Source of the DNA: Microthyrium microscopicum
Lineage: Eukaryota
Reading direction: 5' to 3'
Assembly (NCBI GenBank): GCA_010405405.1
Contig: MU004231.1
Span: 62,001-126,000 of the forward strand
Length of the DNA: 64,000 nucleotides
The notes under the pieces were generated by a model. It did not search any database. It had not been told where the DNA came from and saw nothing but the letters and a program-made list of their open reading frames with translations. Shown here piece after piece: positions 1,645 to 19,179 of the stretch. The stretch's first letter is position 1; every line of letters begins with the position of its first letter. The position numbers and the translations under genes are program-made.

Positions 1645-3408
1645 ATGCGGTTCTCCATATTCATAAGATTGGCGTGCTTGCTGTGTAATTGTCATATTAC
1701 CAGTAAGTTTACTGGAAGTCACCCTTATACAATCGGGCCATTTGACGCTAACATGAAGTCTAACAACAGATGCCGCTTCCTATGAATCTCCCGCCCCTGG
1801 CGCATTGGCTGCTAGTTTTGAGCCACATCAGACAAAATCCGTCGTCAATACGGTCATCCTAGATGTTGCGCCCACGCCAATACCGCGAGAACTACAGGCA
1901 AGGAGCCCGCAGAGAGGGAAGGGTATGGCATGGGGGAAAGGACGAGGTCCGCCGTGGGGCGCAGGTCCTCCTCCCTGGGTACGAGGAGGTGAGTAATTCT
2001 TCAGAAAAGTTGTGCATTGGCTGAAGTTATATAGCAATTCCGCCTGTTGAGATACATGGTGGAGGGAACCTAGCAAGAGATCAGTTTTGCGCGCAACTTC
2101 TCGAGTCTGTTATACCGCCCATGTTCAGCATGATGGGAAATACTGTACTAGGAGGCGCGCAGGGCCCGAAACCCACCGTTACAGTCAATATGGGCGGACC
2201 TAATCGGTATGGAGAGAATCTCGATACATGTATGAATACAATGGGTCCGCCATGGGCCTGGACAGGCGGGCGGAAGCCACCTTATGGAGATGGATTACCT
2301 CCAATTGTAAGACCCTGTTGATGCCTTATTGTAGGGGATTGGTCTGACTGATCTAGGTCATTGTACAACAAGGTACCCCTTCGAACAATCCTATGGTATG
2401 CTCAGCTGCTACTTCGTCACTATCCAGATCGGTCTCGCAGTATTTCTCTTATGTTTCCTCATCCAGAAACGTAAACTCGGTACATCGGACTGGCCTGGCT
2501 GGGACAGTGGCTTCAGCGGTTGCATCCGCATTGAGCACGAGGCCCTCAGCAACCTTCTATGGAGGACCATGTGTGACTGGAGGGAGATATAGTGGAGGCT
2601 CAATACCAGGCGTTTTCCCAACGATAGGAATTGCGACGAAATCGGGTGGCAGCGCAGTATTTGGCGACGCTCCGGCATCAGGAATTACGCACGCTACTAC
2701 TTACTTTACACAGGCCCGACCAACGCAACAAGCGACGCAGACTGTGACTATAACGAGAGACAATTCTCCCCCTTCTGCGCCGTTGGATATCGAGACTACT
2801 TCTGAAGTCACTGTGTGTCGGCAATATCCGGATTTGCTTACCAATGACTGGAGCCATGTAGCGAATTTGGAACTCAAGACGAAAATCAAACCCACTTGCT
2901 GGACGGTATCATCTCTTCCATACGAGATGGGCAGTATAAATGGAAGCAACATATGGATACACGATCAACCCCATGACTGCTGGGTCCACGAGCAACTCCT
3001 AAACACCCACCAGGATGACCTTACTCAAAAACTGAAATACTGCAAAACGCCCCAACATCTAGTCGGTGGGTTACAAGAACAATATACACGACAAGACTGT
3101 TATGACGGTCCCTCTTTGGACGCTCCATCCAAAAACCTTGGAGATGGTGACTACGTCGATGTCACCTGTCAGATTTTCGGCGAAAATGTGCGAGGCAACA
3201 AGTGAGTTTCCAACAGGAAAACATTTCTTTCACTGTTAAAAGAGGCTAATATGATGAAAGTACCTGGATCAAAACCTCTCAGAACTGTTATATGCCCGGA
3301 GGAGTCTTCGATCTTGCAAAATGGCTCAGTGAGTACAAAGACTCATAAGAATATCACACCTTACTAACAAACCAACCAGCACCAATGAACCTCAAATCAT
3401 GCACATAA
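1645..3408 (+). CDS. Secreted Gly/Pro/Thr-rich protein with two C-terminal Cys-containing SH3b-like repeats (6 exons)
   Basis: ATG 1645 gives MRFSIFIRLACLLC (signal-peptide-like). Five GT..AG introns join ORF-track pieces 1805, 2121 and 2393 and two short 3' exons in frame, ending ...KTSQNCYMPGGVFDLAKWLTPMNLKSCT* (TAA 3406-3408). The repeat C..GP....V.VTCQ..GENV.GN..W.KT...CY resembles, from memory, the N-terminal SH3b-like repeats of fungal NlpC/P60 proteins. Confidence 0.75.
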
Positions 3409-3843
3409 CAACCAGCCACTGAACCATACTTAACGAAAACGATCATATCGCCCATCCTATGTAAAATTAGCACAAAGTTCCGTTTATACAATACCCCAAA
3501 TATCAAATGTCAGATACCTGACCTGAACCGAAAGCAAAGCATATGTTCATACCAAGAGTTCACATAAGATTGATGAAGCGACAAGCGTTTAGTATTGTAC
3601 CAACGTTCCAAGTGACAAGATGACAAAAGTTGTTTTGATTCAATTCAGAGCACAAGCCCAATTTTCATGCAAAACATGCTGTCACGAGCTCTATAAATGT
3701 CCCATACATGTGTTGTTACAAAATGGCGTCAAATTGGCCCTAGCTTTTCCTTTCGGAGGGACAGATAAAGGGTTCGATCTGCCCACTTGCTTTCTCAACC
3801 TATACTTCCTCCTTTTTGCTGCTGTTATGCTGTCCGATCTTTT

Positions 3844-5516
3844 CTAGATGGTTGTTGGTGTGCTGGCTGACACTACCGATGGGAGTGGTGGGAGAGCACC
3901 GCTTGCTGCGCCTGAAGCAGCAGGTGGTGGTGCTGGGCCTCCGGCTGGTGGTGCTGGAGGTGAGGCAAGTGGTGCTGGTGCTCCTGCTGGTGCAGCTGGA
4001 GAAGTGCCGTTGGTAGATGCGCCGGTGTTGCCAGTACCCTTGGCCGCCTTCTTTGCCTTCTATCGTGGAGATTAGCATGCGAAATTGGAGGTCAGTGGTG
4101 AGTTGCAATTGCTTACCTTTGCCTTCTTTGCTTTCTTCGCCTTCTTGGCGGCGTTCTTCTTGGCCTTCTTACCTCCCTTGCCCTTCTTCGCAGTAGGCGC
4201 AGTAGTAGTACCGTTTCCAGTGTTGGTGCCTGCTGTGAGAGTGGTGTTGGCAGCAGCGCCAGCGGGACCAGCGGGCCCGGCGAGAGCACCAGGACCAGCA
4301 GCCTTATTGTGAGGATCGCGAGCAACGACAGCCTTGTTTGCTGGTTTGGCTGTAGCTTTCAGTTAGCGTTTATATGACTTAAGGGTTGATTAGTTGAGAC
4401 AAATGATCCCAGTGAAGATCGCCCGTGAAGATCACCCGGAAATTTAACAGAAGGACATTGGACCCCTGTTTTGAGCCCATGAGTGTTTTCTTTTACGTCA
4501 AAGTTCTTGAATGTTTCATGAATTTCTTGTGTGTGGTTGTCTGTGTGAGAGTTCTCTTGAAATGTTTATGTTTCTTTTTCTTGGAAAAATTCTTGACTGG
4601 ATTGGTTCTTTGAAATTGGTTGTTGATTCTTTTTAAACTCTTTAAAACGGTTGCTCTTTAAAACAAATTCTTTAATAAAACTCTCCAAACCACAGATTGC
4701 TTTGGCCAAGATGTGTCAACCATGCCATCTTGTATGGCCGAATGGTTTGTTCCAGCCGAAATCAATCGAGAAAAAAGAAGGGTATCGATTTTTGTCGGTT
4801 TGGGGCTCAAAACAGGGTCTTCTTTCAAATGTCCTTCGTGCTCAAATTTCCGGCAATCTTTCAGCAGGATATCATGAAGGACGATTTAGACGCGACGGTT
4901 TCCACCTCTCGCTTTCTTTGCCTTCTTACCTTTCTTTGCGGCCTTTGCCGGAGTTGCGTTCTTCAACACACCTATGCATGATTAGTTTTCGGTGTTTCTA
5001 GAAAACTTTGGGATGTAATACCTCCGTTCACAGCCTTAGCTGGGGTATTGGTCTTTGCCTTGGCGCTAACGGCCTTATAAGCGGCAAGAGATGTAGCACC
5101 CTATCCGCGAGTTAGTATGTTGTTCTGATTTATCTAGTTCAAACACTTACAGTTGCGCTTGGGTTGATCACCATAACCATACCAACTTGGCAATGTTGAG
5201 CCTGAGCGCAGTAAACAACCTGGGGTTGAGTGCTTGTGACAGCAACATCGAATGTTGGCTTGGTACCGGCGTTGGCGGCGACATTGACGAATCCAGAGTT
5301 GAATTGTCCACCTGGCTTGCATCCTTGGCCGGGTGTACCAGCGGTGGCAGTGTGGTTTTGGTCCAAAAAGGTAAATCGGACAGTGTCACCTGGATTGGCG
5401 GTGATAGAGGTTGGTGCGAAAACGAGCTGCTTGTTGCCGCCGACATTGACGTTCTTGATTGCGGCAAAGGCAGCGCCAGCCTGGGCGACAAGAGCAACGG
5501 TCTTTGAGAAATGCAT
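3844..5516 (-). CDS. Secreted cupredoxin-domain protein with Lys/Ala/Pro-rich tail (long isoform; a short isoform ends at 4886)
   Basis: Signal peptide MHFSKTVALVAQAGAAFA. Cupredoxin motifs F.P..I.A.PGDTV.F.F...NHT and YCAQAQHCQVGMVMVINP carry the His/Cys/His/Met type-1 Cu ligand pattern. Introns 5150-5101, 5021-4972, 4929-4350 and 4116-4060 are all phase-compatible; stop TAG 3846-3844. Confidence 0.85.
4426..4863 (-). other. Long-range intronic RNA duplex (arms 4863-4803 and 4478-4426) with internal hairpins
   Basis: On the transcript GGGCUCAAAACAGGG/CCCUGUUUUGAGCCC (15 bp), AAUGUCCUUC/GAAGGACAUU (10 bp) and AAAUUUCCGG/CCGGAAAUUU (10 bp) are colinear complementary blocks, with G-U pairs in the flanking segments. 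Confidence 0.7.
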
Positions 5517-6273
5517 GTTGAGTATGTTGGTAAGGCTATCAAAGCTGTTCGGTAAGGAATGTATTGTTTGTTGGTGAAAGAAGTGAAAGTATACTCTCCA
5601 GGAGATAGATGTATAACGAGCTAGCGTTTTTGTAAAAGAGTGGAATCCAGTCCAAGATACTGAAGAGAAGATCTAAAGAGAAGCTGATGAAGGAATGTTT
5701 GGCTGCTGAAAAAGATTCATGGAAACGGAGTCACTTGGCATATATAGTAATTCCACTTGGCCGTCAAATGTCATTCTTGTGGAGATGTTTCCTAGGTAGA
5801 TGTGGAATTACTTACCAGTACCAGGGACTGAATCAAAGGCGGTAAAGCGGCGCCAGGGAGAGCGGTTGACAGGCTAAACATGGGCGGATTCAAGATGCGC
5901 ACCTGGTGGTTGAGAGACACATGACAGTTGGATGACAGGAACACTTGATGGGAAACAAACGAAAGAATGGCTGAAAATAGAATGCATGATTGGGTGAATG
6001 CTTTGAATCGATGGATATGCCAGGCTCGCCAGTTCTGCCAGGAGGTGAAACGTTTCGAGGTCTGGCAGTGGCTGTATAGAGCAGACTACACAGCATCCTT
6101 CCAAGGTTCGAGATGACCTAGCAAACGCGGAAAAATACAGACGAAGCTGTTTCTGAATACCCTACGTAAATGGTAGGCCTGGAACAATAACAGTGGTTCT
6201 GAACATTGCAACCACGAATCTGGTTTGAAGGATTTCCAAAGTGAAGTTAGAGAGCTCGGAATGATTGGACAAC

Positions 6274-6455
6274 TATGACGGCTCATAACGGCCACCCTAG
6301 CCACTTCACCAAAACCAAAAGGTCTAAATATCTATATTTTATAAATGCAATATTCCTATACCCATTTCCCTATTTTAGCGCTTTAGATAAATTTTAAAAG
6401 AGATATTCAAAAATTACGTATTTTTTAGTACCTAAATTAAGGTAATTAGTAATAA
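6274..6455 (+). repeat. Left terminal inverted repeat (182 bp)
   Basis: Aligns ungapped to the reverse complement of 17484-17665. First 25 bp are identical (TATGACGGCTCATAACGGCCACCCT); 17 mismatches by manual count. Confidence 0.95.
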
Positions 6456-6477
6456 CTAATATAGATATTAGTTAGAG

Positions 6478-6744
6478 GCTTACTAAATTTAGGGAGAAGC
6501 GTCTCTAGAAAATATTCTTATAAGTTAAAGGCTATAAGCTATAGGTAAATTTTAGTATAGTTATAGGGATATATTATAAGCAAAGATATTAGTTCGTAGA
6601 GAAGCTTACTAAATTTAGGAAGAAGTACTTCTAAAAGATATTCTTATAGGTTAAAGGCTATAAACTATAAGTAGATTTTAGTATAGTTATAAGGATGTAT
6701 TATAAGTAAAGATATTAGTTTATAGAGAAGCTTACTAAATTTAG
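6478..6744. repeat. 126-bp subterminal tandem repeat (about 2.1 copies)
   Basis: GCTTACTAAATTTAG starts at 6478, 6604 and 6730; the two full copies differ by RIP-type transitions. Confidence 0.9.
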
Positions 6745-8270
6745 TAAGGGAATATTCTTTAGGAAGACTATACTTATAATATCTTCCCTAAAATAGCTTT
6801 AATAAATAAAATAACTCTGCGTAAGGGTTTTAATTAGGGCTAGCACTATAGGGCTCCTTCCTTAAAAGAATAAAAGCAAGGTTATGGATTTATGACTATA
6901 GTAAAGTTTAGTAAAGCTTAGTAGTAGTAATTCCTTACTAAATTAGCTTATAGGTAAGCCTTAGCTATAATGTCCCTTTTAGGGTATTATTTCTTTTATA
7001 GGTTCTTAGGTTATTCCTTTACGTATTATCCCTTTAGGTTAGGCGTTATATCTTAATAGTAAGGAGGGTATAATCCCTTACTAAATAATATTATTCTAGT
7101 ACGTTATCCTTTTTACTTATAACTACTTTACTAACTTTTAGTAAGTCTAAGTTACTAAAAACTTCTATCCCTTTAGCTATAACGTCTTCTAATGCTCCTC
7201 TACTACTAATTTGTATCTCTAAAAATAATTTCTAGCTTTTAATATAATTATATAAGCTTTAAGACGTTAATATAGAGTATTTTAGACTTTTCTATTTATA
7301 TTATATAAGATAAAGTTATGTTTTGGTAAGTCTATATCCCTTAGCTTATGTACTAAATCGTTATATATACTATTTAGCTTACTAATTAGTAGAACTACTA
7401 ACGCTAAAAGTGTAAGTATTCCTTATAAATACTAATTATTTTATAAAACGTGTCTATACTTAAATATCTAAGGGGCTAGCTTACTATTATAAAGCACTAT
7501 GCCTATAAGAATATAAAAAAAGTAAGGAAATAGCGCAAGATTAGCGCTAGGATAGTTAGCGCTACTATATAATAATCTCATAAGGCTAAATTATATATAA
7601 GTTTGTCTTTTTTTATTAAATTAAGCATAACTAATACGATTAGGTAATAAAATTATAGTAGAGAAAGTTTAGTAAAGTAAGATTTTTTAGTATTAAGTAA
7701 GAAAGAGACTATAACTCTAATCTAGCTATTATATTTAAGTAGCGCTAAGCTAGTTTATATAGCAAGTAGTATATATACCTAAGTCTTACTAAGTTTCTCT
7801 ATAGCTATATTAAGAGCTAGGTAAGTAGGGAAACTTAGCAATTTTAGCTCTTTTATAAAAAAAAAGGAGTAAAATTATAATAAATTCTAACACGTAACGT
7901 TAAAAATTACGTAGAATCTATAATAATATTAAGCTTATACTATATAGTAGTTTTATATCTATGTAGTCTTACTATAATAATCTAGTAGTAAGTATTACTT
8001 TAAGAATAATGTCCTACTACTATAAAGTAAGCCTTCTTAGTTAAAAGGCTCTCTCTACTCTTAATTCTATACTCTCTAGTATAGTATACTTCTATGTGTA
8101 TAAAATTAATTATAAAGCTTACTATGCTATTCCTCCCTAGGGACTACTTAAGAGAATACGTATAGTAAGATACCTTATAATAAAATGCTTAGTATTTTAC
8201 TTATAGTGTGCGCTCTATAGATAACCTATTAGAATATATTAAGGTATCTACCCTTCATAGAGAGATACTT

Positions 8271-8340
8271 TATATAAGGAATTAAGATATTGTTTTACTT
8301 ATTATATAAGGGATTAAGATATTGTTTTACTTATTATATA
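8271..8340. repeat. 32-bp tandem duplication inside the transposon
   Basis: TATATAAGG(A/G)ATTAAGATATTGTTTTACTTAT starts at 8271 and 8303. Confidence 0.85.
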
Positions 8341-11001
8341 TGTTTATTTTAGTAAAATAAAAAGAATAACTTATAATTACTTTTTAAAGTACTATTTAAT
8401 AATTACTTAGCTTTAAGGCAGCTAAAACTAATAGAGATTACTAGTCTAACCTATCTCTATAACCTAGTCTAGTTTTCTAAATATATAAGTATTAACTAGC
8501 TAGGATAGCTATAAAGCTTTTCTATTACTAAGTAGTATTATTTAATACTACGTATTACTTAGGCAAGTAAAGCTTTCTATAATAAAGCTTATTAAGTAGT
8601 ATATTTATACTAATACTTAGTAAAATTACTATAAGGGTATCTTAGTAGATCTTAATTAATATTAAGACTCTTTTAGAGTAATAATATTATAATAATCTTT
8701 ATAACTATTTATGCTTTAGTATTTATTATTAGAGATATCTTATTATACTTCGTTAGTTGCCCTTCTTTAATATACTTTCTAGAAAAGATTAAAATAGTAA
8801 GGTATTTTTTATATTAATTTTTTTTTTTTAAAAAAAAGTCTTAACATCTTTAACGTTAATACATTCTATATTAATATATTATATTATGCTAGGTTAATCT
8901 ATAGTAATATAGGTAGTTTTTAACTATTAATTAATTAGTATTTTAGTTATACTAAATGCTATAACTACTTATTACTTAAAGATACTATATACGAGATATA
9001 AATAATATTACTACCTTTTATTAGTTATAGCCTACTATAGACTACTATCTATAGTAGGCTTATTAATAATGACTAATTACCTTCTTATTTAGAGATTTTA
9101 TCTTATAGATAGGCTTATTAGTTATAATAGAGTAATTCTAGTATATTTTTTAAGTCTAATCTCGTTTTTCCTTTACCTATTTTACTAATAATGCTCTCTT
9201 AAGGCTATAGTTTTGTATAACTTATTATGCTTATATAGTAGTTATACTTTAGTCTAGAGTATAGTAATTAAGTTATTCTATATATTAAAGGAGCTTATAT
9301 TTTATAATATAGAGGAAAGTTAGTTAAAAACTAGTATATTATTTAAATACTATCTAAACTAAATACTAGCAAGTTAGTATTTAGGAGAAAGGTTACCTAA
9401 AAACTAAAGCTAACTACTATAATTTTTTATTATAATTTTTATTTAAACTAGGCTCCTTAAAGACTTTCTAATATTATTATAACCTTATTATTATTATATA
9501 TAAAGATAATTCTATACGCTACTTTATATCCTTAAGAAGTATAAACACTATATTAAGAATAATATAAATAATATAAGTAGGTTATAAGATTATTAACCTA
9601 TATAAATTATAAGCTCTTAATTTTACTAAGAGTATTCCTATCTATAAAAAGTGATTTTACTTTAATCTAGTATTAATAAGTATATTTAATACGTTAGCCT
9701 TAACGTATAATAGAAGTTATACTCTTTACTTTAGTATAAAATATATATCTTTTTTAAGAAAGTTAAGTTTATTAAGTAAAGACTCTAGGTAGCTTTATTA
9801 AGGTAATTTAACTATATTATTTATTAGCTAGTAGTTATACTTTAGATATACCTAATTTTTTCTTAGATAGAAATTTTAGTATATATTATTAATCTAAAGT
9901 AGTAAATATTGTTATTAAAAGAACGTAGATATAAAAGCCTCTAAAAAAATAGAGAAACTTCGTTACTTAATATATAATTAGTAGTATATTATAAGAAAGG
10001 TAGGAATATACTTTTTATTAATATATACTAGATAACGTAAATAAATATTAATAAATATTATTATTAGTTTATTAATATATAGAGGTAGGCTAGTTAACTA
10101 CTTCTAAATATCTTTATTTAAGTAGTATTCTTTTTAAGTTAAAAAGTATTAGTCCCTAGTAGGTAGAAGTAGTAACTATAATATATATCTAAATACTAGA
10201 CGATTAAGTAGTAAAAGAGTAGCTTAGAGTTAGCTAATATCTAAAAATATATTACTAGCTATAGTAGTTACTAACTAGTCGTTATGCTTATTTATAAAGA
10301 GATATTATAAAATCTAAGTAGTTAAACTTTTAACTTATAAAGCTTACGTATCTATCTACCTTATTACCTAGTAATAATTAATAGCTTTAAGAATAAACTA
10401 AGGGTTTATTTAGAATATCTAGGGATATAGAATAGTAGGCTTATATTTTATATATTATAATTAATAGAAACAAAAATATAAAAAGCGTATTATAGGCTAT
10501 CCTTTACTAGATTTAAGCCTATAACGTACGCTTTAAGTAAGTCCTAAATTTACTCTATTATCTACTAATCTACTTTAAGATAATAGAAATTACTTTTAAT
10601 ATCCCTATTTATTTTAGTAGTTATTTTTTAATATATTTACTTTTACTTATTATTACTACGCCTAGGATAGTAAAGTAAGTATACTACTTTACTTACCCTA
10701 GGTACTTATTATATATTTAATTCTTTTATCTTTTTAAGAAGTCTTCTATCTATAGGGATAGTATTATATTAATAGATTAAAGCTAATTATAAACTTAGGC
10801 ATATATTATAAGTATTAATTAGAGTATAGCTAGTAGTACTTCTTTTTAGAAAAATAGTTATATCTAACGTAATAGTATATCTCTACTAAGGACTTTATTA
10901 TATATATATTAATAAAGTACTAGATTTCTACCTACTATATTATTAATTAAGGTAGTGCTTTATATAGAAGAAATATATATTAGCAATAAGATAACTAATA
11001 A

Positions 11002-12400
11002 GTAAGAATTTATCTACTTCCTCTTGCTATTAAAAAGAATACTAACTTAATATTAGACTAATAAAAATCCTAATTTAGGTAGGTATTAGCTCCTTTAGAG
11101 CTATGTTAGACCTTAATTATTTTCTTAGTTTACTTAAGAGGTAGTTAGGGTCTAATATTAAAAGATAAAGACTTAAAAATACTAAGGGAAGTATATACGA
11201 GTTATATTTAACCTTCTTTTAGTATAGCATACCTTTTAGTAGTATATCGTCTAGGATAGAGAGTAGATTAAAATTATAAGTTAATATAGGTATAACTTTC
11301 TCTAGATCTTACTCTATAGTTAAAGTTACTACTTTATAAAATATTCTAATATAGAAGGATTTAGCTAAAAAGTCCTTAAAATAAATAAAGCTTATACGTT
11401 TCTAGCTACTCTCTTAGTTTACTAAGGGGTAGCTAAGAAATTATAAGCTTTATTTCGTCCTATATATTATTTTAATAATATTTACTCTAAGGATTATAGA
11501 TTTAATTAAGTCCTTAATACTAATAACTAGATATAAATTAATATAATATAATATTAAATTAAAGAATCTTACTTAGAGCCCTTCTATAAGGACCTTTAGC
11601 ACTATATAGATAGCAAAGAGAAGTTAAATATTTTTAGGGTACGTTTAAAAGTAGAAAAGATAAAGATATATATAAATTATAATAGTAATATAATAGGCTT
11701 ATTAGTTAAGTTTAGTGACTTAAATCTTCTAGAAGGTAAGGACGCATTAATATTATTAATGCGCTTTTAAGGTAGACTATAGAGATTATATAGGTAAGTA
11801 AGAAGAATTCTTAAAAGTATAAGTAAGGCTAAGGTAAGCTTTATTTAGATAAATAGTACTAAATAGAGAGAGTACTACTAGCCTATTTATATTTTAAATA
11901 ACGCTAAAAAAATTAATATATTTTTAAGAGCTTTAAAAAAGATAAATAGAGTAAAGATTAAGAAAGAATAAGGAGAGAATAAGCAATTAGTTTAGGAAGT
12001 TAACTTTAATAAAGGCTATTCTCTTCGTAAGTATAATAGCGAGAAGTTATTAAAACGCTATTATAAATTTAATAATAAGGATGTAGATAACTATATTACG
12101 TATAAGGGAAAAAATAGAGTTACTCCTAATTAAAGAGTCTTAGAAAGATATAGTCTAGATATTAAAGGGCTTATTACCTTTATCCTTAAGTACCTAGTAG
12201 CCTAATAATTAACTTTATTAACCCTCCTTAAGTTATTTCCTACTAATTAATATTATATTTATCTTAAACAAGACTATGACTCCTCTATAGACTAGTAGGC
12301 TATAAAAGTCTTTTTAGAATTAGAGTTAAAGCTTAACTACTATTATTATATTTCCTAGTAAGTAGTTAATATTATTAAATAGAAACGTAACTAATTTTTT
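11002..12400 (+). pseudogene. RIP-degraded cargo gene relic (ORF3), unknown product; boundaries approximate
   Basis: Intron-like GTAAGA..TACTAAC..TAG at 11002-11056. The frame from 11561 (KESYLEPFYKDL*HYIDSKEK...) runs about 250 codons with only sparse TAA/TAG stops of the kind RIP creates from CAA/CAG/TGG. Confidence 0.45.
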
Positions 12401-12699
12401 TATAGGATTATATTAATACTTAACTAATAACTCTTTAGCATTTAGATTCTTAGTTTAGTATAGCTTTTAATTAATTTAGTTATTAATTTAGGTTCTATTT
12501 TTAGCGTATTTATAAAAATATTATATATTACTTACTATTCTTAAGCTTATTATTTACTTTTTTTATTATTATATGCTAGTTTTTTATATCCTACTTTATA
12601 ACTTCTTTTTACTAAGTCGTATTAATTACTATACTTACTAATGTTTACTTAGGTTTAACTTATAAGTTAATAAACTACTTAAGGATTTAGAGGGGCTTA

Positions 12700-15035
12700 G
12701 TTTAGTAATATAAAGATAAAGCATTGCGGTTTAATAAGTTAGTTACTTATTATTTAGTAATATATGTATAGCCTTATAAGGATATATTATTAGATTATGT
12801 AGCTTTTATTTAGGATAGAGCGTTAGTTCTTCCTAACTATTTAGTCTTATATAAGTTAAAGCCTACGCAAGTAGCGTAAGGGCTTAATTCTCTTTGCTTA
12901 AAGCCTTAAAGGAATAATAAATAATTAATTTCTTTTAAGGAATTAAAGAAATTAACACTATGTCTAATAATAAAAAGTAGCTAGTTTTTAGTAAGTCTAG
13001 CATAGCCTAGTGCGGTCTACTTCTTAAGGGTAGTATTACTATTTATATAGTATTCCTAGTTAGTATTCCTAGTAGAGGCTAAGGCCTAAGGCTAAAGTGC
13101 TCTAGCGCTTTAAATAATTAGTAAGAAGCTATTTTATATTTATAAACTAATATTGTCCTATTTAACTAGCTAGGCACTAAGCCTATCCTTTTTTAGTAAG
13201 CTTTACTTAGTAGCGTTATTATGCTATAAATTAAAATAAAGATAAGACCTAAGAGTAATATTATTAGTAATATAAAGTAAAACTATCTAAAGGAAGGACT
13301 AAAGAGTACTAGTAAAGAGACGTAAAGATAAATTAGTTTCTACTAATAGCACTATTATGCCTACCTTACCTGCTAGTACTACTACGTCCTTTTTTTTCTT
13401 TCTTACTTAAGCTACTTTATAGACTTTTCTTAGTAGTAAGCTATATAACTTATTAAGCCTTTACTTCTTTCTATTCCTATTCTAGGCTTACTACTAGCCC
13501 TTTTTTATACTTTTAAAGGGTTTAATTAGATAGCTTAGTATTAGAGGCGTTATGTTTATAGAGCGTCTTATTAGTTTATAGCTTTAACTTTTCTATATTA
13601 TTACCTTTCTTTTTCTTTTTAGTAGGAGTTTTCTTTATTAGCTCTAAATATAGTTTATAGTTATTATTATCTTTAGTTCCCTTTAGCGGCTCTTTATCCT
13701 CTAGTAGCTCTCTATTATTACTAGAATTACTAGATTTACTAAAAACTTTATCTTTACTATTACCTTATCTAGTTAAGTTAAGGAAGGCCTTAAAGTTAAT
13801 TATAGCTAGCTTAAACTCTTTCTTAATCTTTTAAAAAGTATTAGAATTAACTATAGTAATAGTACTACTAAGCTTATCCTCCTTTTTAATACTTTAAATT
13901 AAAAGTAGTATAAGTAATATAATATCTAGGTATCTAGGCCTTAGTATTGTTTTGCTAAGCTATTCTTATCCTCTTAAAACTAAAGTTTCTAGGTTGTTAA
14001 GTTACTTATAGTAATTTACTTAGGCCTTATAATTTATTCTTATAATCTAAAAGATGAGGTTAATGTTAAACTATGCTTTACCTATCTTCTTTTCCTTCTT
14101 TAGCTTAAATAGCTTGTTCTTAAAAAAATCTTTTAAGCTCTAAGGTTCGTTATATATTCTGCTAACCTTATTAAACCTTAGTTCTTTCTTTTTAGTTTTA
14201 TCTATACCTCCTTAGGTGTCCTCTACGTCGTTATAAAGAAAAATATAGGACTTTATGCCTTTATCCTTATTATATAACGCCTAAAACTATTTAATAATAT
14301 CTTAGTCTAGATGCTTAAATAAGATCTTTATAATAAAGTATAAGATACTATCTATATTACCCTAATAGATAATACTGCTAGAAAAACCTAGCTCTTATTA
14401 GCTAATAGTCTATATTCTATTAGTAAGTTAGCAAACTTACTTATTTAGGCTACTTTTTAGAATATCTCTTTACTATCTAGTAGCATATTATTATAAAAAA
14501 GCTTCTAAGTATTAAAATTATAAGGCTATTTAGTTTAAGTCTTTTTAGCGTTTTAATATATTAAACTTAGATTATCTTTAATACTTTAAAGCTAACCTAT
14601 CTTTGCGTTCCTAACTAATACTAGGTTTAGGTAAGAAGCTAACTAAGTAATAAAAGCTTTAGACTCTATTTATATTAGCGCATCTCCTTCTCTATCCTAA
14701 TAATCCTCTATTTAAATACGCAAATTAAGTAAGAACATAGGGCTATTACCTATAGACCTAAATTATTTAGTCTTAACTATAGAAACTTATTAGGCAGGTA
14801 ATAGATATAACTTAATATTATAAATAATAGTTTCTTCTTTAATTACTACTAGTTCTAGTAGTAGTCTAACCTAGGGTTAAGGATTCTCTTTTAACTATCT
14901 CTCTATTAGTTAAGGTACTCTCTTTACCTAGTAAATACTAGTTTCTTAGAAGTAAGAAGAATACTCTATACCTATATCCTAATTATAACTTCTTTACTAA
15001 GCTATATCTATATCTTAGTAAGCTAGATATAGTAT
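12700..15035 (-). pseudogene. RIP-degraded second gene of the transposon (ORF2), unknown product; boundaries approximate
   Basis: Clean intron GTAAGT..GCTAAT..TAG at 14440-14388 with compatible phase. A long purine-rich minus frame follows (…YNDVEDT*GGIDKTKKKELRF…) with only TAA/TAG stops. Confidence 0.5.
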
Positions 15036-15314
15036 GCCTTTTAGTTAAGAGTTAAGTACCTAAGTAGGTTTATAAAGAAGGCCTAAAGCTAATATAATAA
15101 ATATAAAATTAGAAATATAAGAGTATAAATATTAAAGAAGTAAATAAGTATTAACCTAATATATATATTAGTAAGAAGTAAGTTCTTATATAATAGAATT
15201 AAGTTTCTTAGATAAAGAGTAGTTAAGAAATATATTATTTATCTACTAGAGAAGCGTTATTTATAGTAAGGTATTATAGCAAGTAAGCTAAGACTTATCA
15301 TTAAAATATAGAGC

Positions 15315-17001
15315 TTACTCTATATAAAAGTAGTCTACCCCTACTATATCTAATGCAGCATAGAACTTAGCTGTCCTTACTTTAATAAATTTCCTAACCT
15401 TATCTCGTTCTATATTAGCTAGTATAACTATAGTAGGCTAACTAGGATTAGCTTTAATTTAATTCTCTCTACTACTTAGTATTACTAGAAGATATATAAT
15501 TAGTAACTATTTACTAAGGATATATTTATTTAGTATACCTCTTAGAGTTAGGTAAATGCCTCTAAATAGATTAGTCTTTCTCTAGTAATCTTAGGCGTTA
15601 CTAAAAGAGTCTATAGAGGAATTAAACCCTATCTACTATAGTTCTTGTTAGTACTATTAAAGGGTTTCTTTAGGTAGATAGGTATCTTTGTCCTAGTTGC
15701 TAGCTTATTACTTTACTACGTAGATAAGTTTAAGATTAATTAGTAAGCTAACCTTCTCTACGTTCTAAGGATGATTATATAGGTACTATAGCTTTCTATT
15801 AATAGCATTAGGGCGCTTCTTCTTAGTATTAGTTAACTTATAATTATTCTAGTTATAAACATATCTAGTAATAATATCTTATAAGATGAGTATAAATATA
15901 GCTAGCATTATAATATAATTAGTAAGTCTATTTTATGAGAATTCGCTATCTCTTTAAAGCTACTTAAAAAACTTCTATAGGGAATTAGTATATCTTTTAG
16001 AGCGTATATTAATATTACTTTAATAAAATAAAACTTACTCTCTATTTATTTAGTATAAATCTACTAAGATTTCCCTACCAACGTTCTATTTATTAGTTAA
16101 TAATACTTATCCTATATAGGAAATAGTTCTTAAAATAAAGGTTAGGTTTATAAGCAAGCAAGAATCTATAATAAGTATTAGCGAGTATAACTATTTTACT
16201 ACCTTAGTCTAATTAAATAAATTATAGCTAAATTAGCCTACCTTCTAAATAATCTAAGTGTTAGTAAAGATAGCTAACACTCGTCCTATTTAATATATTA
16301 ATATTATAATAGTTAAAATATCTTAAGTAGGCGTTAATATAGCTATAAATCTTAAAGCTAAATTGCTTTAGTTTATTATACTTATTAATAGACTAAATAT
16401 AATCTAGACTTTTAACTTTATATTTACCCTATTTTTAATGTACTTATTTCTATTAAGTAGTAGTAGCTTCTAGATCTAATTATCATTAAATAAAATAAAT
16501 ATTTCTTAGAAGTATATTACGTCCCTAGGCTCTAATTCTTATTACTAATATATAATATCTATAATTTATAATACTAAGATAGGATTATTAAAGCTTACGC
16601 TAAATTGTATCGTAATTATCCTTAAAGTATACTTTATAGAACTCTTAATATAATCTATAGTCTTACTAATGAGATATTCTAAGCTTCTAGCAATGTCGTT
16701 ATAAAGTTCTCTAAGAAAGTTTATACCTATAATCTTATAGGGTATATATTATCTCTCTCTTGTTACTATTAAAGACGTAAAATAAAGCCTTTATTACGTC
16801 CTTTAAATTTTTATTAAGCTATATAGTTCTTCTTTAAATCTTCTATTTATTAATTCTTTAATGAATAGTTTAAATAGAAACCTTTATATTATATTTATTA
16901 AGAAGCTATTTACGAACCTTAGTATTAGTATAGCTTTTAGTTAATACTAAGCTCTTAATAGAGGCTTAGTATATAATTAAATTAATATAAGTATTTAGTA
17001 T
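15315..17001 (-). pseudogene. RIP-degraded DDE transposase (N-terminal Clr5/HTH-like region plus IS3-like integrase core)
   Basis: Literal SLDYI*SINKYNKLKQFSFKIYSYINAYLRY (16410-16318), L*FI*LD*GSKIVILAN (about 16230-16180) and NYFLYRISIIN**IERW* (about 16130-16075) revert by C>T/G>A reversal alone to GPDYIWSIDG.DKLKQFGFEIYGCIDAYSRY, P.FIRSDRG.ETV.LAD and DCFLYGTSTANQRIERWW. Intron 16038-15975; relic start ATA (for ATG) at 17001. Confidence 0.85.
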
Positions 17002-17184
17002 AATAAAAATTGCTTAGGAGGTATAACTAATACTAAAGGAGAAGAGAGAAATACTATACTTTATATTAGACTCTATAATAATAGTTAACTTCTATCTATT
17101 AGTATATCGTTAAGAATTAAAAGCCTTTCTTAATTAATTTCTATTACTAATCTATATATATACTAATTATATTACCTTAACTAA

Positions 17185-17465
17185 TAATATATAGCTATAC
17201 CTTTCTTATTAATATAGCTATATCTTTCTTGTTACCTTTATTATTAATATAGCTATATCTTTCTTAGTGCCTTACCTACTAACGTAGCTATACCTCGCCT
17301 ACTAATGTAGCTATACCTTGCCTACTAATATAGCTATACTTTACCTACTAACGTAGCTATACCTTGTCTACTAACGTAGCTATACTTATCTTACCCTTTC
17401 CTACTAATGTAGCTATACCTTACCTACTAATATAGCTATACCTTGCCTACTAATATAGCTACACT
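17185..17465. repeat. About 23-bp subterminal tandem array (CTACTAAYRTAGCTATACCTTGC-like)
   Basis: Eight close copies from about 17276 to 17465 plus degenerate copies from about 17185, lying between the right TIR and the transposase start. Confidence 0.9.
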
Positions 17466-17483
17466 ATTGCTATATTATAGTTA

Positions 17484-17665
17484 TTATTACTAATTACCTT
17501 AATTTAGGTACTAAAAAATACGTAATTTTTAAACATTTCTTTTAGAATTTATCTAAAGCGCTAAAATAGGGAAATAGGTGCAGGAATATTACATTTATAA
17601 AATGTAGAGCTTTGTACTTTTTGGTTTTGCTGAACTGGCCAGGGTGGCCGTTATGAGCCGTCATA
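17484..17665 (-). repeat. Right terminal inverted repeat (182 bp)
   Basis: Reverse complement of 6274-6455; ends ...GTTATGAGCCGTCATA followed by ACAAC. Confidence 0.95.
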
Positions 17666-19179
17666 ACAACAGACCTTCTCTAAGAAGCAGTCGACAAGGG
17701 TCATTCCTTCTCTGACAGGAGAAATGTTACAGATTATCTGCTGTGAGCATCTGAGTATTTCGTTTTTGTAGTACCGGTAATAGGCAAGTAGTAAAGCAGC
17801 GGGTAGTCTAGTGGACGGGAGCAAGCTTGAGCAGCTGGAGGCTCTTTGCGGAGTATCAAGATCCGTATTTTTAGCGCTCACACGCAAGACACGCTGGAAG
17901 ATCCGAACAACGTGGAACTGATCGTTTGGCTCCAAGCGCTTAGTCCTGGAGTCCAGGAGTCCAGCGTTGGCACCGATTCCAGGACCGTATTCTCCGACCA
18001 CACCATGCCTAACGCTGGTACAATTGTATTCGAGGTCTGGAGTCGCGCAGGGTTTCTCGTCAAAGACCCGGTTAATTCGCTAGATTCAGTCAAGATAAGA
18101 TGAGGATGGATGAGCTTGTTCGGGCTTGGCGCATCCCGATATGCATCTTGATGCATCTTGTTGCATTTGTTGGACATTGCAGCAGCGGATCTTGATGTCG
18201 CCGCAAGACTCAAATGACAGGTCCAGACTCCAGATCCCCGTCTCGTGCAGCTGCTTCAACCAAGGATTTGCAGGTCATGATTGAGCCTCCATACCTCTGT
18301 AAGTGTAAATTAACGGGAACCCGCAACTGACTCTGTTTGTTTGTTCTTCCGAAAAGAAAGGACTGTTAAAATCCTCCAGGAATTCAGGAGAGTGCAATTG
18401 TTTTGTTATGCTCATGTCATGCAGATGGATGCGACTTTTCTCATCATCAAAACAAACACCAAGGGCTGGATTGAGACATGACTATGCTGAATGAGATATT
18501 TCAAGGGCATAGTTTGCCGAATTGATGGCCCGGAGCCCTGCCTAAATAGTAAGATGAAGTCGTGCAAGTTGCAACAAGATGTTGATCTTGGTCATGCAAC
18601 AGGTCGACCAAATAATGAGTGACAAGTTCAAACCCATTGTTGATGACTGGCGCCATGGCGTTTTTGTCGAGAGAGCGGAAATGTATTTGATCCTCCGTCT
18701 TGATCGAAGTTCAAACATACCGTACCCCTTTTGATGCATTCCATGAATGAAAACCGCCGAAAGAAAGTGTAGTTGATGGAAGTAGTGGCCATAGCACTTG
18801 ATGGAGGTCATGCAATGAGCCCTGACATCATACAATCTATTTTTACTCGCTGGATGAAAAGTCTTGAACTCATGATGTAGGTTTTGATAGCCAGTCAGAG
18901 GTAGTGAAGAGTTGAAAATTGGACGCAATAAAGAGGATAATAAGAGTTCTTGGAAAAGCTTGTGTGAAGGAGGCTCATCACCAATGGTCAAGTTACCGGT
19001 ACTCAAGTAGGCTTACGCGTAGTCTACGACGTACGGATCGCCCTGCATTGAACTTGCCGACATCTGGATCAGCCCTTTGTTGCTTCCTCGACCACGTTGT
19101 TCCTGCATCTCCAAGTCCAACATATTCATCCTGATACACTTCATGGGCTTCATACTACCATTGTCGTGTTTACCAACCT

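Follow-up and report, generated by a model that had tools for sequence, protein, structure and literature searches.

An 11.4-kb DNA transposon relic, very probably of the IS3EU superfamily, recovered from beneath saturated repeat-induced point mutation in an ascomycete-type genome

What kind of element lies hidden in the sole AT-rich block of a 64-kb stretch of the Microthyrium microscopicum genome, and how much of its original organization can still be read? The stretch (contig MU004231.1 of assembly GCA_010405405.1, positions 62,001 to 126,000; 64,000 nucleotides, hereafter the window) has a guanine plus cytosine (GC) content per kb of 0.42–0.54, which falls to 0.20–0.28 between window positions 6274 and 17665. 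These 11,392 bp form a bounded element, present as one copy in the window, that is flanked by a target-site duplication (TSD), holds the relic of a gene of the DDE integrase type, has many diverged copies elsewhere and is saturated with repeat-induced point mutation (RIP). Our analyses indicate that it very probably belongs to a multi-copy family of IS3EU-type (IS3EU/GingerRoot) DNA transposons in an ascomycete-type genome, and that this copy is dead. As a clean ascomycete representative bounded on both sides, it enlarges the record of a transposon superfamily that has received little study, and it illustrates that a relic with saturated RIP can still be mapped by combining purine/pyrimidine periodicity, scoring that allows the reversal of transitions alone and hidden Markov models (HMMs) built from close relatives.

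The ends of the element can be read directly. They consist of two inverted arms of 190 nt that are 89% complementary, and the termini read TATGACGG..CCGTCATA. A preliminary description, made from the letters of the sequence, had correctly recognized long terminal inverted repeats (TIRs) but had given their length as 182 bp. When the sequence is recoded as purines and pyrimidines, which makes the comparison blind to RIP transitions, the arms agree at 80 of 80 positions (6331 versus 17608) and are the sole inverted pair within the element; with the same coding, no direct pair of at least 40 nt was found inside it except for a tandem array of 23-bp units on the right. An alignment of their terminal 200 nt shows 13 transitions and 8 transversions between the two arms. 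Each is followed, just on its inner side, by a subterminal tandem array that differs between left and right. The pentanucleotide ACAAC directly abuts both ends and the sixth base mismatches on either side; the chance of a 5-bp match at one fixed junction is about 1 in 1024. The exact ends and this 5-bp duplication, both proposed in the preliminary description, are thus borne out by direct reading, and other copies break off at the same bases.

Within these limits the RIP signature is extreme. The element has a GC content of 0.243 (0.46–0.49 in its flanks), a TpA/ApT ratio of 1.73 (0.66–0.70 in the flanks) and a (CpA+TpG)/(ApC+GpT) ratio of 0.18 (1.29–1.33 in the flanks), the usual RIP cut-offs for the two indices being about 0.89 and 1.03, respectively. 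Relative to the flanks, CpA is present at 0.09 times and CpG at 0.19 times their frequency there, and TpA at 4.4 times. Differences between the element and the contigs of other copies (run X1) are transitions at 1,502 places versus transversions at 77. Stop codons occur about every nine codons in all frames, and RIP has destroyed every reading frame. Saturation of this kind presupposes former repetition of the sequence. The indices, the dinucleotides and the transition excess agree with the earlier view of an element obscured by RIP and, together with the arms, the duplication and the transposase relic described below, with that of a structurally complete but degraded DNA transposon.

The former repetition is visible in sequencing runs. 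The left flank was found in four runs only, all from one sample that is possibly the source of this DNA and that provides no independent evidence of the insertion. Contigs match the element at 80–99% likeness in all of them, about 2,500–2,700 in three runs and 882 in X3. Among the matches listed, contigs of other copies diverge into unrelated flanks just before 6274, close by at 6271 and directly after 17665, and others carry joints from 11489 to 16035 and from 10060 to 15229, corresponding to internally deleted copies. The family is multi-copy and its ends are real; the present data gave no indication of an intact genomic copy. The copies bearing these joints are devoid of the coding half, and what they retain is the right end together with the 5 kb on the left. 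At position 8095, five or six contigs per run (X1, X2, X4) continue into a different AT-rich sequence.

The gene relic that reveals the nature of the element is a nearly full-length transposase on the minus strand, extending over about 1.49 kb (15507–16995) and not over about 1.7 kb, as had been estimated. Reversing T>C and A>G changes alone restores three catalytic motifs in one minus-strand frame: W.IDG.DKL (16369–16395), RSDRG.E (16195–16215) and NQRIERWW (16075–16098). The preliminary description had reported these motifs and the 41 codons from the second aspartate to the glutamate, and both stand. The catalytic codons are those of the first aspartate at 16384–16386 (now N), of the second at 16207–16209 and of the glutamate at 16084–16086, a D-59-D-41-E spacing identical to that of the intact relative P0003 (D202, D261, E302). 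Used as a phmmer query against 1.84 billion representative proteins, the frame 15679–16878 (minus strand, X at stops) matched 130 proteins at E ≤ 1e-3, 21 of them at E ≤ 1e-10, the best at 1e-19. All 17 relatives that we scanned have the Pfam domain rva_4 (PF24764, integrase core), a Clr5 domain is present at the N-terminus in 12 of them, and zinc-finger families are absent from all. A local family HMM (58 near-full-length matches, 485 positions) matches 16018–16989 with its positions 5–323 (independent E-value 1.8e-37) and, in a different frame, 15510–16001 with its positions 308–456 (3.1e-14). Separate exon HMMs match 16696–16995 (N-terminal, 6e-9) and 15507–16031 (C-terminal, 8e-12), and the RIP-aware ungapped score of the transposase is about 400, against a maximum of 128 for the reversed-query null. 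The frame change at 16001–16018 falls near model positions 308–323; because the transposase is split into two open reading frames (ORFs) at the equivalent point in the related metagenomic loci L001, L006 and L017, the change suggests a conserved short intron rather than damage. Several short library proteins (P0071, P0088, P0089, P0090 and P0112) share RIP-type words with the relic (YNKLK for YDKLK; YINAY) and look like gene calls on other RIP-mutated family copies in other assemblies.

To which superfamily does this transposase belong? IS3EU elements have been described as having TA..TA termini and TSDs that are usually 6 bp long; their integrase-like DDE (DDD/E) transposase is devoid of an HHCC zinc finger and has its first catalytic aspartate 100–300 residues from the N-terminus (PMC10045372). 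In fungi, they have TAYGG..CCRTA ends, TIRs exceeding 30 bp and passenger genes of the TET/JBP and alpha-kinase types (PMC12730594). When metagenome contigs were searched with 15 aligned relatives, 80 related loci emerged (numbered with the prefix L), including 13 candidates bounded by inverted repeats with both flanks readable (L002, L005, L007, L011, L017, L020, L040, L044, L052, L060, L069, L073 and L077). Seven of these 13 start with TACGG (L002, L017, L020, L044, L069, L073 and L077), and three have a clean duplication: AAAGAC in L069 and TCCCTG in L077, both of 6 bp, and GTTAG in L052, of 5 bp. A Tet_JBP ORF occurs in L069 and L077. Because intact relatives carry the published hallmarks (TACGG..CCGTA ends, 6-bp duplications, Tet_JBP ORFs and, in L001, L005 and L034, DUF3716 ORFs like those of Styx), we read the family of the relic as IS3EU, in line with the IS3EU-like character that had been proposed for the element. 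The element itself has an integrase-like DDE transposase whose first catalytic aspartate lies about 203 codons into the matched region (16995 to 16386), within the range published for IS3EU, as well as TA..TA termini, TIRs far longer than 30 bp and a size in the large multi-gene class. In an alignment of 19 termini, its end lines up with the TACGG-type ends of the relatives.

The related loci are themselves varied. In L069 (261–7746, 7.5 kb) and L077 (6654–13205, 6.6 kb), TACGG..CCGTA ends enclose a Tet_JBP ORF, located upstream of the transposase, and an opposite-strand ORF, a gene order unlike the published one, in which TET lies between the transposase and the alpha-kinase. L052 (7083–12329, 5.2 kb) has the termini TACTGAGG..CCTCAGTA and a DUF3716-like ORF besides its 5-bp duplication. 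CTTAG is found directly left of the ends of L020 and L025, and the flanks of these two loci and of L052 hint at a TTAG target preference. L044 (22–13287) extends for 13.3 kb between 52-bp inverted repeats and contains a gene for an SNF2-type helicase, with flanks devoid of a matching duplication. L012 (959–4024) has an Argonaute/Piwi gene just upstream of an L011-like terminus, and the right end of L011, whose duplication is ambiguous, reads TATGACGG, as in our element. By RIP-aware likeness, the loci nearest to the relic are L016, L001, L003, L006 and L017.

The rest of the interior is harder to read. We relied mainly on the period-3 power of the purine/pyrimidine spectrum in 900-nt segments, a measure insensitive to RIP transitions, for which shuffled segments have a median of 0.7, a 99th percentile of 4.3 and a maximum of 5.2, and segments of the host have a median of 1.8. 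The first transposase exon, our positive control, reaches 6.7–7.5. Two further regions stand out (relics A and B; Table 1), with 8.3 at 13474–14373 in relic A and 4.9 at 11374–12273 in relic B, and power remains at 0.0–1.8 in all segments starting at 6274–10774 (spanning 6274–11673). This RIP-proof signal is thus restricted to about 11.4–17.1 kb, and the left 5 kb appears to be non-coding passenger or structural DNA, the missing signal being suggestive and no proof. Relic A has dicodon scores of 11–21 bits, the top value of 21.1 being reached by none of 100 shuffles, and about one stop per 26 codons versus an average of about one per 9. Relic B has a low stop density and a dicodon score of 14.1, which is not significant (reached by 31 of 100 shuffles). 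The period-3 spectrum was preferred to the purine/pyrimidine codon and dicodon measure, which is weak (the training ORFs have a median of 1.1 bits per 100 codons); stop-density maps do not discriminate. One or two genes other than the transposase were probably present in the right half. The multi-gene nature claimed for the element is thus plausible for the right 6 kb, given the periodicity of relics A and B, and unsupported for the left 5 kb; the claim that about 9 kb remained for other genes was overstated, and our searches named no passenger gene.

A word-indexed search for homologues of relic A (P0132, residues 100–400) returned none at E ≤ 0.01 among proteins of 302–963 residues. When the 1,277 ORFs of the 80 related loci were compared with the element by phmmer, 135 of 136 domain matches fell in the transposase and the remaining one was noise; a RIP-aware ungapped search with the same ORFs found nothing beyond the transposase above the null maximum of 128, and among HMMs of 23 conserved ORF families from these loci, two matched the element, both of transposase exons. 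In the left part, Pfam, phmmer and the RIP-aware search detected no likeness to a transposase or a reverse transcriptase, and in the whole element Pfam, the RIP-aware search and the family HMMs detected no relic of TET/JBP or alpha-kinase genes. DUF3716 gave no match by phmmer or family HMM, and RIP may hide this 59-aa domain; in a RIP-aware profile scan of the element, the highest score, 56.2, was attained in 48 of 200 column shuffles. Within relic B, tyrosines can be seen by eye at four of the five cysteine spacings of DUF3716, but with a profile scan that is not significant we rejected this candidate as unproven.

Table 1. Features of the element and its insertion site, in window coordinates.
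Feature	Position	Strand	Basis
Left TSD copy, ACAAC	6269..6273		Read directly; equals 17666–17670
Left TIR, begins TATGACGGCTCATAACGGCCACCC	6274..6463	+	190-nt arm pair; contig of other copy breaks just before 6274
Left-hand subterminal array, 2.2 tandem units of 126 bp	6474..6748		Just inside left TIR
Left interior of about 4.6 kb, candidate non-coding	6749..11373		No coding periodicity, GC about 0.20, strongest RIP, highest summed contig depth
Candidate coding relic B	11374..12300	+	Period-3 power, low stop density; strand inferred from skew and dicodon score
Candidate coding relic A, purine-rich, partly low complexity, downstream of transposase	13324..14373	-	Period-3 power, dicodon score, stop density
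Transposase relic, C-terminal part (second exon, frame unlike first)	15507..16001	-	Family HMM and exon HMM
Transposase relic, N-terminal Clr5-like region and DDE core	16018..16995	-	phmmer, HMMs, motifs, RIP-aware score
Right-hand subterminal array of some eight or more 23-bp tandem units	17173..17465		Between transposase gene start and right TIR
Right TIR, ends ..CCGTCATA	17476..17665	-	Arm pair; contigs of other copies change flank directly after 17665
Right TSD copy, ACAAC	17666..17670		Read directly

Several observations weigh against an IS3EU assignment. The duplication, read from this single copy, is of 5 bp instead of the usual 6. The terminus is TATGA..TCATA and not TAYGG..CCRTA, with agreement at four of five positions; of the match to IS3EU termini proposed in the preliminary description for TAT..ATA, the TA..TA part stands. 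The remaining 10 of the 13 relatives with readable flanks show no or ambiguous duplication, possibly as a result of chimeric assembly of multi-copy repeats. Membership rests on the shared hallmarks of relatives and not on a tree with Repbase proteins. The passenger genes of the relatives were detected in the element neither by phmmer nor by RIP-aware scoring or family HMMs. Pfam found no family in the X-read translations of the six frames at E ≤ 1, and none in a 400-aa piece of the transposase at E ≤ 10; since Pfam is blind even to the transposase relic under this level of RIP, its negative results on the element carry little weight. Lastly, the summed contig depths in run X1 (about 110 in the flanks, 2,500–8,000 over 6.2–12.4 kb and 450–1,000 over 12.8–17.3 kb) are those of the probable source sample and not copy numbers, and X3 does not have the same left/right contrast; abundance is probably greater in the left half. 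As for the duplication length, the simplest reading is that the stagger is 5 bp in some members of the family and 6 bp in others: in RIP-aware likeness to the relic, L052, with 5 bp, ranks 57th among the 80 loci, and L077 and L069, with 6 bp, rank 19th and 24th, these ranks being derived from ungapped segment scores that are affected by the intron fragmentation of ORFs.

The rival explanation that survives best concerns the integrity of the element. An IS3EU element of about 6 kb, with the transposase and one or two genes, might have acquired on its left about 5 kb of an unrelated high-copy repeat (a degraded element or captured repeat DNA), in which case the 11.4 kb would not be one coherent gene-carrying unit. 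The left 5 kb, devoid of period-3 signal, with the lowest GC and the strongest RIP, would fit such a nest, as would the contrast in X1 depth and the modest size, 3.1–4.1 kb, of the nearest relatives with both ends (L017, L002, L073 and L025). However, the absence of a second inverted pair and of direct pairs of at least 40 nt beyond the 23-bp array means that no intact nested TIR or long terminal repeat element is present, and the left part resembles neither a transposase nor a reverse transcriptase. Moreover, the high contig depth starts at the left TIR itself, and the two deletion joints remove the coding half and retain the left part, which fits non-autonomous derivatives of one family. We consider a composite origin unlikely, without dismissing it. 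Although speculative, a distinct ascomycete branch of IS3EU can also be imagined, with 5-bp instead of 6-bp cuts and unusually long ends of 190 nt, that would have multiplied chiefly as non-autonomous copies based on a 5-kb non-coding module and whose one or two passenger genes would have no detectable relative among the passengers of the 80 loci; we regard this idea as doubtful.

Assignment to another superfamily fares much worse than either. Ginger2/TDD elements, related to integrases, make 4–5-bp duplications (5 bp in TDD-4 and TDD-5) and have TIRs of 50–180 bp, termini of the form TGTNR and transposases with an H2C2 zinc finger (PMC2836005). They share with our element the 5-bp duplication, the long TIRs and the integrase-like DDE core, but its termini are TATG..CATA, its relatives end in TACGG and have Clr5 (12 of 17) instead of a zinc-finger family (0 of 17), so that a Ginger2/TDD origin appears highly improbable. 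Sly1-1 of Neurospora crassa, brought up for comparison in the preliminary description, is indeed similar in size (11,534 bp), has TIRs and also resides in a fungus with RIP, but it encodes a CACTA-Mirage-Chapaev transposase (PMC4592977), unrelated to an rva_4 integrase relic recognized at 1e-19 and 1.8e-37, and the transposase family refutes this origin. Finally, the single copy in the window would accord with an AT-rich isochore or with an inverted duplication that arose by chance, and both are refuted by inverted ends of 190 nt next to an exact direct repeat of 5 bp, the transposase relic and the other copies with the same ends in other flanks.

If the element is an IS3EU transposon, as we favor, its history may be outlined from what is known of its family. 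An active transposase, made up of an N-terminal Clr5-type helix-turn-helix followed by an rva_4 core, would have attached to the long inverted repeats, perhaps also to the subterminal arrays, excised the element and integrated it at a 5-bp staggered break, the repair of which would have left ACAAC on both sides. Multiplication to many copies would then have triggered RIP in sexual cycles, killing this copy, in which RIP converted nearly all CpA and TpG to TpA. The insertion site itself can be reconstituted by excising the element together with one copy of ACAAC, which yields a minus-strand ORF, 198 codons from stop to stop, across the insertion point (6089–6273 joined with 17671–18079). ORFs of the 198-codon class cover 37% of the host window versus 0.13% in shuffles, and Pfam found no match in either half of this one. 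Judging from the reading frame, the element probably landed in a host exon.

How does this element compare with known systems? Fungal IS3EU elements with cargo, 8–13 kb in size, and the IS3EU-related Styx are already in print, and our element is a well-preserved, fairly ordinary example. The preliminary description had seen in it a poorly described, cargo-carrying lineage with 5-bp TSDs, a claim that we cannot uphold: the only other 5-bp case is the distant L052, and cargo-carrying fungal IS3EU elements have been published. In the TET-bearing IS3EU families of rusts, the consensus cells of Table S1 hold 8,337 to 12,933 characters (PMC12730594), and the first 30 nt of one of these consensus sequences, IS3EU-1_PGra, have about 19–20 letters in common with the terminus of our element, as judged by eye and not computed. 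The element differs from the rust families by its ascomycete-type, RIP-mutated host context.

In this respect it comes closer to Styx/REP9 of Zymoseptoria, an element of 7.9 kb with four genes, including DUF3716 genes and an integrase, 6-bp TSDs and TIRs of 36–43 bp (PMC8232023, PMC10853768), for which cut-and-paste mobility has been documented (PMC10853768). Both are multi-copy, IS3EU-related elements of RIP-exposed ascomycetes in which an integrase-type transposase lies at one end, accompanied by further genes (probably one or two in ours). The Styx papers report the DUF3716 layout from Zymoseptoria alone (PMC8232023, PMC10853768), and a full-text literature search for DUF3716 in a transposon context returned only the Styx paper. 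Among our 80 loci, seven have a DUF3716 ORF beside an rva_4/Clr5 transposase, on the opposite strand in six of the seven. The clearest are close relatives of our element (L001:3585–4106, L005:3953–4456 and L034:4565–5116, all on the minus strand), where this ORF is convergent with the transposase, as in Styx; weaker ones occur in L035, L040, L044 and L052. This suggests that the Styx-like layout, an integrase-type transposase with a convergent DUF3716 gene, is widespread beyond Zymoseptoria. Neither this spread nor the 5/6-bp variation changes the general understanding of these elements. Styx is the active counterpart against which our element can be set: 7.9 kb with short TIRs and 6-bp duplications in the one, a dead copy of 11,392 bp with 190-nt TIRs and a 5-bp duplication in the other.

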